Of a stretch of 64,000 bases of DNA, positions 4,066 to 4,850 are shown one piece after another. Numbering within the stretch: position 1 is the stretch's first letter; the number at the start of each line of letters is the position of its first letter. Location of the stretch: positions 62,372,001-62,436,000 of the forward strand of contig OZ024746.1 in assembly GCA_964016885.1 (NCBI GenBank), read 5' to 3'. This DNA comes from Eledone cirrhosa. Taxonomy: Eukaryota. A model generated the notes under the pieces. That model did not search any database, was not told where the DNA came from, and saw only the letters and a program-made list of their open reading frames with translations. The position numbers and the translations under genes were made by a program.

Positions 4066-4850
4066 TGGAAAAAATGAAACGAAATTTCATTTCTCACTCT
4101 TAGTATGGCTGTTACTTAAATATAAGTATGTATACGTACATACATATATGTAACAGATGTACAGTAGTATGTATATATATACATACATGCACACATATAT
4201 ATGTACGTATGGATTTACTAAACATATATTATAATGTTCGGTTTGTTTGTAAACAAACATCCCGAATTAAGCCATACAGTGTCTAGCAACAATCGTTGCC
4301 CTTTTGTTCAACGCTGACAAAGGAACGATGTACTAGTTTCAAGCTTAATAGCTATCATCAGCACCGTATACCTTCCTGCCAGATGATTGAACGTCTGAAA
4401 GTATATACTTTCCTTATGCATATTAACGGCTGAGCAGCCTAATTTGCATATCAAGTGAGTTAATTGGCTGGGCACACCGAAAACGATAAATGGAAAAAAT
4501 GAAACAAAATTTCATTTCTCACTCTTAGTACGGCTGTTACTGAAATATAAGTATGTATGTATATACATACATATATGTACGTATGGATTTACAGAACATT
4601 TATTATAATGTTTGTTTATTTTCTAAACAAACATCCCGAATTAAGCCATACAGTGTTTAGCGACCATCGTTGCCCTTTTGTTCAACACTGACAAAGGAAC
4701 AATGTACTAATTACAAGCTTCTTAGCTATCGTAAAAAAGGGCAACGATGGTTGCTAGACACTGTACGGCTTAATTCGGGATGTTTGTTTACAAACAAACC
4801 GAACATTATAATAATAAATGTTCGGTAAATCCATACGTACATATATATGT
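4066..4850 (-). mobile_element. Non-autonomous Penelope/retrozyme-like element (family H4): tandem direct repeats plus inverted 5' copy
   Basis: 4066-4360 is repeated at 4491-4732 (425-bp offset); 4733-4850 is an inverted copy; hammerhead at 4325-4367. Confidence 0.75.
4325..4367 (-). ncRNA. Minimal type I hammerhead ribozyme
   Basis: Minus strand ACGGTG-CTGATGA-T-AGCT-ATTA-AGCT-T-GAAA-CTAG-TA-CATCGT: 6-bp stem I, 4-bp stem II, palindromic ACTAGT stem III, GUA cleavage triplet. Confidence 0.8.

Follow-up and report, generated by a model that had tools for sequence, protein, structure and literature searches.

A repeat bordered by (TA)n near the start of a 64-kb window (the whole stretch of DNA analysed) had been proposed, from its letters alone, to be a self-cleaving mobile element without coding capacity, and the question is what kind of element it represents and how it was copied into its target. 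The formation of tandem and inverted structures by Penelope-like elements (PLEs) is an open problem (Craig et al. 2021), and the link between retrozymes and PLEs has hitherto been based on co-occurrence and on homology of pseudo-LTRs (pLTRs). We consider it probable (roughly 0.8) that the locus is an old insertion of a non-coding repeat of ~430 nt, with a hammerhead predicted to be self-cleaving, which was likely copied into (TA)n by a PLE enzyme.

Layout of the locus and its hammerhead motif

By BLAST, the element spans positions 4066-4924 and consists of a 425-nt unit, a 5′-truncated second unit and an inverted arm (Table 1). The direct repeats at 4066 and 4491, 425 bp apart, described in the original prediction were borne out by alignment; its inverted partial copy is real, but the extent given for it (4733-4850) had to be corrected, and while the flanks do adjoin (TA)n as described, much of the TA-rich DNA belongs to the interior of the element. 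No ORF of at least 120 aa overlaps 4066-4924, in line with the absence of coding capacity first proposed. The second unit retains, as predicted, the 3′ part of a decayed hammerhead, with GTAA for GAAA and TTAG for CTAG, and the inversion breakpoint indeed lies inside it, but this position looks incidental, since 5′ breakpoints scatter along the unit. At subfamily-diagnostic sites the second unit has zero mismatches to the full one, so its changes probably arose by decay after insertion; since the units agree at these sites, the idea that the window copy derives from a heterodimeric template was rejected. The locus holds one complete hammerhead ('monomer' under the rule of bioRxiv 2026.07.22.740005) and thus lacks cis release of unit-length RNA; the copy is likely an old insertion and a dead end.

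Table 1. Coordinates of the retrozyme copy, its parts and its flanks in the 64-kb window
Feature	Position	Strand	Evidence and remarks
Left target flank, (TA)8 plus CA, adjoining the 3′ end of the direct arm	4048..4065		sequence
Complete 425-nt retrozyme unit, U1 = 4490, U425 = 4066, 3′ end at site B	4066..4490	-	alignment; best genomic copies 93-95% identical
51-nt 'tail' between the fixed 3′ ends, site A (U374, 4117) and site B (U425, 4066)	4066..4116	-	79/86 copies end at A or B
Tail hairpin, form common to sister families	4076-4093	-	alignment of families
Type I hammerhead motif with extended stem I	4314..4382	-	descriptor search, covariation; core 4367-4325; predicted cut after GUA, between 4331 and 4330
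Palindrome centred on a TATA-like sequence, upstream of the hammerhead, possibly part of a promoter	4397..4412	-	sequence; family C has a TATA-like-centred hairpin at the corresponding position
Octamer ATGCAAAT, conserved across families A, B and C, possible internal promoter element	4442..4449	-	alignment of units
Second unit, 5′-truncated (U135-425), head-to-tail with the full unit	4491..4730	-	BLAST; 51-bp deletion in the TA-rich part
Inverted arm, U186 to about U374, head-to-head join, ends at site A	4735..4924	+	BLAST (U186-369, 93% identical)
Right flank, TA/CA-rich	4925..5045		sequence

The descriptor search found the type I hammerhead exactly where it had been predicted, with a 6-bp stem I, CUGAUGA, a 4-bp stem II, GAAA, a palindromic ACUAGU stem III and a GUA site. 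All letters of the type I core (C3-U4-G5-A6-N7-G8-A9, G12-A13-A14, A15.1-U16.1 and H17) are present, H17 being A in the window copy and C or U in sister families. The monomer has a stem III of 2 bp with a 2-nt loop, and loop 2 reads AUUA in the window copy vs AAUA or AACA in relatives. Stem I continues via an internal loop to 4382/4314, which gives the motif the canonical metazoan type I size and makes the predicted label 'minimal' inappropriate. In min-HHRs, helix III/loop 3 is absent or reduced, helix II has 6-8 bp, helix I is short and loop 1 poorly defined (PMC4209133); this description does not fit the motif found here, whose 6-bp extended helix I, 4-bp helix II with a U.U and invariant loop letters place it with the 'canonical' type. 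Stem II is closed by U.U at 10.1-11.1 and not by G-C in the window copy, and the G10.1-C11.1 pair is likewise absent in families A and B (U.U) and present in family C (G-C; families are introduced below). U10.1-U11.1 is a known tolerated hammerhead variant (PMC3088659; PMC7229834), and axolotl HHR_Amex2, with the same U.U at the base of stem II as families A and B, reaches 22% cleavage as a monomer and is cleaved far more efficiently when dimeric (PMC7229834).

Type I descriptors gave two hits in the window, of which this motif is the sole convincing one, the other having an unrelated 36-nt stem II. The model-based search suggested at the outset returned no match to the Rfam hammerhead models at E ≤ 10, either among the best 150 of 190 matches listed for the window or in a second scan, and the remaining Rfam matches are miRNA-like noise produced by TA repeats. 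Taken by itself, the 43-nt motif has a fold no more stable than that of shuffled sequences (z -1.2; -2.3 for 101 nt), its MFE fold is not the hammerhead, and in free co-folding the double hammerhead is not the MFE structure (-20.0 vs -34.3 kcal/mol for the free dimer). A chance origin of the motif is argued against by its copy number (3,964 exact matches, reversed control 0) and by covariation.

Among 13 distinct natural copies, 92.8% of cells are paired vs 30-48% in slid controls, and two-sided changes are found in 5/16 pairs; the covariation shuffle test is inflated by the relatedness of copies, and two count-type measures failed to exceed shuffles (60 and 255 of 500). Core and stems are thus conserved between families, a point on which the original prediction had staked its validity: stems I and II covary, whereas stem III is invariant and hence uninformative. 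One stem I pair occurs as GU, AU, UA and UG, and stem II of family C has a different sequence, fully paired and with a G-C closure. The letters of the hammerhead loops hardly vary, suggesting that loop 1 and loop 2 are in contact. Decay in old copies affects the core about as much as the flanks (1.9% vs 3.0%; core intact in 21 of 28 unselected copies), which is what dead insertions would show; because of this decay, core conservation is visible only between families. Whole units folded as circles are 63-71% paired, with z of -7 to -13 (5 units, 25 shuffles each; TA tracts inflate z).

Further upstream in the unit, the octamer ATGCAAAT is exact in 5/6 aligned units and has one mismatch in L187. 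An octamer/snRNA-type promoter drives transcription of newt satellite 2; our literature search turned up no supporting paper.

Copy number and affiliation with retrozymes

In the 3.0-Gb molluscan genome the exact 34-nt core occurs 3,964 times, so that the repeat is clearly not single-copy. A relaxed motif gave 28,570 matches ending in GUA (control 10) and 11,855 ending in GUC/GUU (control 22); these about 40,000 are motif matches across sister families, not loci. A first look with the window unit yielded 2,859 candidates. The window copy belongs to family A, which has at least three haplotypes; family B is about 85% and family C about 72% alike to it. Family C (1,633 exact core matches; L175, L201-L218; G000:C1:5738326-5752444), to which a weak match beside the PLE locus L091 had led, is very young, with units of 463-470 nt and a GUC or GUU site. 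All three share one layout of start word, octamer, TATA-like hairpin, hammerhead, hairpins, TA-rich stem and terminal hairpin. Tandem arrays reach 16-31 units, the longest in family C, and young arrays are 98.5-100% identical internally, so non-coding tandem units that each carry a type I hammerhead are present at the family level. Further unrelated type I hammerhead families were met by chance in the flanks of L086, L087, L090, L091, L094 and L099, and since such extra families turn up in flanks, the hammerhead total of the genome should lie well above 40,000.

Judged on the features testable in sequence, the element is a newly found non-LTR retrozyme of about 430 nt, in a class that is already known. 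It resembles the metazoan non-LTR retrozymes of coral, mussel and axolotl (Cervera and de la Pena 2020, PMC7229834) in its non-coding tandem unit of a few hundred bp with low GC, in its type I hammerhead and in a highly self-paired predicted circle. Its unit of 420-510 nt lies at or above the 150-450 bp reported there, and it differs from them in that its sequence is lineage-specific, that the TSD is unreadable owing to the (TA)n target and that it is known from genomic DNA alone; inverted arms and two fixed ends, seen here, are undescribed in the consulted portions of that work on metazoan retrozymes. In the open literature we found no description of a cephalopod retrozyme; supplements of the cited papers may list some. 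The element thus brings a likely octopod into the range of retrozymes and offers, for comparison, one hammerhead in naturally occurring U.U and G-C forms. The host carries molluscan haemocyanin genes with seven full-score units per gene, a count indicative of an octopod, while the LINE ORF next to the element gave no indication of lineage.

Insertion ends and the template

The first 100 exact core matches on contig C1 were taken as a sample, giving 86 loci after overlap merging. Their 3′ ends fall at site A in 41, at site B in 38 and elsewhere in 7, the two sites lying 51-65 nt apart. More than one head-to-tail unit was found in 44 loci and an inverted arm in 43, and (TA)3 occurs within 20 nt of the 3′ end in 67/86 copies vs 207/1720 background 20-mers (12%). 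Where both arms of an inversion end at a fixed site, and only such inversions were counted, the two arms almost always use opposite sites, as the window copy does: in 29/30, then 31/32 (30/31 with a duplicated locus counted once) and then 16/16 cases, or 75/77 pooled with the duplicated locus counted once, vs about half expected (p 8e-16 against one half for the first two sets). Omitted, as at least one arm ends elsewhere, were 13/43 inversions, 18/50 joins (many of these 18 being TA-tract self-matches) and 1/17; one further join was cut by the locus edge. The single BB case in the 31/32 set (L184) is a hairpin self-match and was kept in the count. We found no earlier count of A/B pairing in the open literature. 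At L200 (G000:C1:19619900-19626800), an identical inverted insertion with its junction is present twice, 2.6 kb apart, either a local duplication or an assembly artefact.

With partial tandem, inverted 5′-truncated copy, tail and microsatellite target, the PLE-type signature is complete, and copy number, A/B ends and tandem plus inverted arms support the original view of a non-autonomous, high-copy, hammerhead-bearing element with Penelope-type insertion anatomy. Together with the shared variants and the junction geometry described below, this anatomy suggests that a Penelope-type reverse transcriptase primes twice in a coupled manner, probably on an RNA circle. A minisatellite spread via DNA recombination, with the hammerhead motif as chance or relic, could account for the long arrays, and a few variants occurring in 2-3 units of an array suggest some later duplication; it hardly deserves consideration, however, given that the copies are dispersed over many contigs, have (TA)n targets, end at two fixed 3′ sites and form head-to-head inversions that obey A/B pairing, and given the covariation.

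In the mechanism that we propose, tandem arrays with at least two intact hammerheads (such arrays are observed) would be transcribed, possibly from the internal octamer/TATA-like elements. Adjacent hammerheads would then pair their palindromic stems III and cut after GUA as a dimer, freeing a monomer, for which structure, covariation and the axolotl precedent argue, and the monomer would be ligated to a circle. A PLE RT/GIY-YIG protein would presumably cut both (TA)n strands and prime at site A on one DNA strand and at site B on the other; how far each cDNA is then extended round the template would vary, which would yield partial-tandem copies as well as arrays, and where both cDNAs are extended they would be joined head-to-head via short microhomology into the inverted structure. 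The window copy would be a product of such double extension, with a B arm of about 1.6 units, an A arm of 190 nt and ~5% of later decay.

Whether the inverted arm could instead stem from fold-back self-priming of one cDNA, and the one-end tail from endonuclease resolution (as suggested in PMC3846280 and PMC8557442), can be judged from the geometry of the junctions. Such an origin explains variants common to both arms, and loops of 30 nt or less are seen at 6/39 family A junctions, although at 0/23 in family C; yet 9/23 inversions of family C and 13/39 of family A (22/62) are impossible as copies of the longer arm, the loops are scattered over the whole unit, and either arm can be the longer one (A in 38, B in 24). 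Fold-back was therefore rejected for most inversions, and we regard it as improbable. Junctions overlap by at least 1 base in 18/23 cases in family C.

Single templates are indicated by the agreement within insertions, since units and arms of one insertion differ at 8% of diagnostic sites vs 46% between loci (background 4-5%). In family C, variants found in only 1/30 loci (that is, private among the 30 sampled) occur in every covering unit of both arms in L203, L204, L206, L210, L211 and L217; two such variants are present in 7/7 and 8/8 covering units of L203 and one in 9/9 of L204. A homogeneous source array would also give private variants in both arms. In the older family, just 3-5% of rare variants are common within a locus (0.5% between loci). 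The 5′ ends show no accumulation at the ribozyme cut: 2/87 lie there, with 22 running past, and in a second set 1/38 (1.06 expected), with 98 passes, while the 5′ breakpoints of other copies are scattered along the unit.

These observations bear on the choice between a circle and an uncut linear multimer as the template, the weakest step of the mechanism, where we favour the circle by about three to one. The same element and PLE enzyme could have worked on a long linear transcript that reads through a homogeneous array uncut, in which case the hammerhead would be a conserved passenger or act in another step. Uncleaved RNA is inserted in vitro by the Anolis PLE (PMC11167929), 8/9 Xenopus dimers remained uncleaved in vitro (bioRxiv 2026.07.22.740005), the absence of 5′ ends at the cut site is equally compatible with such a template, and long arrays are present as possible sources. 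We nevertheless find it unlikely, if worth keeping in mind, as variants fixed in all units of an insertion would need a monomer bottleneck or homogenisation, and stem covariation across families that are 72-90% alike implies selection on the fold in each round. We would put the full circular scheme at even odds; here a single enzyme complex would start cDNA synthesis on both strands of a cleaved (TA)n site from two different fixed positions of one retrozyme RNA circle, round which both polymerases would then travel. If true, a single double-priming event would account for the tail being confined to one end, for the head-to-head join and for arrays that are tens of units long from the outset, and the superfamily, recording the mechanism of PLE integration, would provide genomic evidence for PLE proteins mobilising retrozyme circles in trans.

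Penelope-like elements and neighbouring DNA

Among 10,597 GIY-YIG candidates in the genome, 150 were scored and 40 loci (20 short, 20 long) examined, from which some six PLE families encoding RT and GIY-YIG domains emerged; ORFs with both domains reach 1,096 aa. None of these 40 loci holds an autonomous PLE sharing the sequence of the unit. The hammerheads of these families have other sequences, yet their stems III are palindromic too, and one family has a U.U closure. Several of the proteins carry a CxxCxxC linker, presumably of the Neptune type, and the named eukaryotic relatives of one protein are bivalve. At L081-L100, two PLE families appear by eye to have hammerheads with a U3-A8 core variant and an ACCGGU stem III about 0.5-1 kb past the stop codon.

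The copies could in principle be 5′-truncated pLTR ends of a long autonomous PLE rather than an independent small element, as PLE insertions are mostly 5′-truncated with the same tandem, inverted and tail anatomy (PMC8557442, PMC3846280) and the inspected copies are a small fraction of the family. However, U425 and not an ORF lies upstream of U1 in 44/86 loci, arrays run to 16-31 units, and PLE protein hits accompany only 2/86 loci, both decayed, the stronger one (L141) about 700 nt past the 3′ end. We consider this reading largely refuted and very improbable; a parent PLE with this pLTR may be the ancestor of the independent retrozyme that we favour.

EN+ PLEs (PMC8557442, PMC3846280, PMC4209133) share with the element partial tandems, head-to-head inversion, a one-end tail, a bias for (TA)n and a hammerhead with palindromic stem III, and a circular template has been proposed (PMC4209133). 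They differ in that the retrozyme has no ORF, that its tail is 51-65 nt vs 30-40 nt, and that the presence of the tail at exactly one end is near-absolute here (75/77) vs 'often' or 'optionally' in those descriptions. For Anolis Poseidon PAc in vitro, the hammerhead is dispensable for insertion and uncleaved RNA is the main substrate (Frangieh et al. 2024, PMC11167929). As in the retrozyme, two internal RT start sites bracket the tail and the target is AT-rich, and as in the model proposed here both target strands are cut and extended and a dimer is predicted; the strands showed, however, no difference in start site, and pairing within one event is unreported in the consulted parts of that study. 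In the retrozyme the start sites resemble UUAU, and pairing with (TA)n is conceivable. Non-autonomous Chlamys PLEs such as MRC1 (PMC8557442) are also non-coding PLE derivatives with pLTRs and multicopy head-to-tail insertions, but they come from green algae, mostly lack a canonical hammerhead and have a 3′ end similar to a known autonomous family. Li, Clavereau and Pollet (bioRxiv 10.64898/2026.07.22.740005) likewise concluded that hammerhead repeats found as monomers, dimers and multimers depend on PLEs, on the basis of co-occurrence and pLTR homology in vertebrates, three insects and a coral, with no molluscs in the consulted portions of the preprint, whereas the present link comes from the insertion signature, the 40 GIY-YIG loci having yielded no homologous parent pLTR.

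The value of the family lies in its use as a test system, with tens of thousands of short copies, among them arrays that are 99-100% identical within. It offers insertion rules for PLE integration (opposite start sites per arm, a single template for each insertion, read-through at the ribozyme cut, fold-back impossible in many cases) that lend themselves to genome-wide counting and to testing in the in vitro PLE assay already available.

Directly left of the retrozyme, window positions 3606-4047 hold part of a second abundant family associated with (TA)n (1,491 candidates, 96-98% alike) with an internal 143-bp duplication, which also shows head-to-head inversion and a short and a long 3′ end, A/B-like (L222, L224); no PLE protein hits were found within 1.5 kb in 12 of its loci. 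Decayed LINE ORF2 pieces, with RVT_1 and PHD-type domains in relatives and unrelated to the retrozyme, are present at 2893-3530, 5400-6100, 6413-8000 and 8949-10114. A tRNA-like match at 2406-2474 on the minus strand, right at the Rfam threshold with 29.4 bits, is possibly a SINE head. Elsewhere, the window contains a 30-bp minisatellite at 20109-20886 (26 copies, 95% identity) and, at 60082-63812, a 3.7-kb AT-rich simple-repeat tract.
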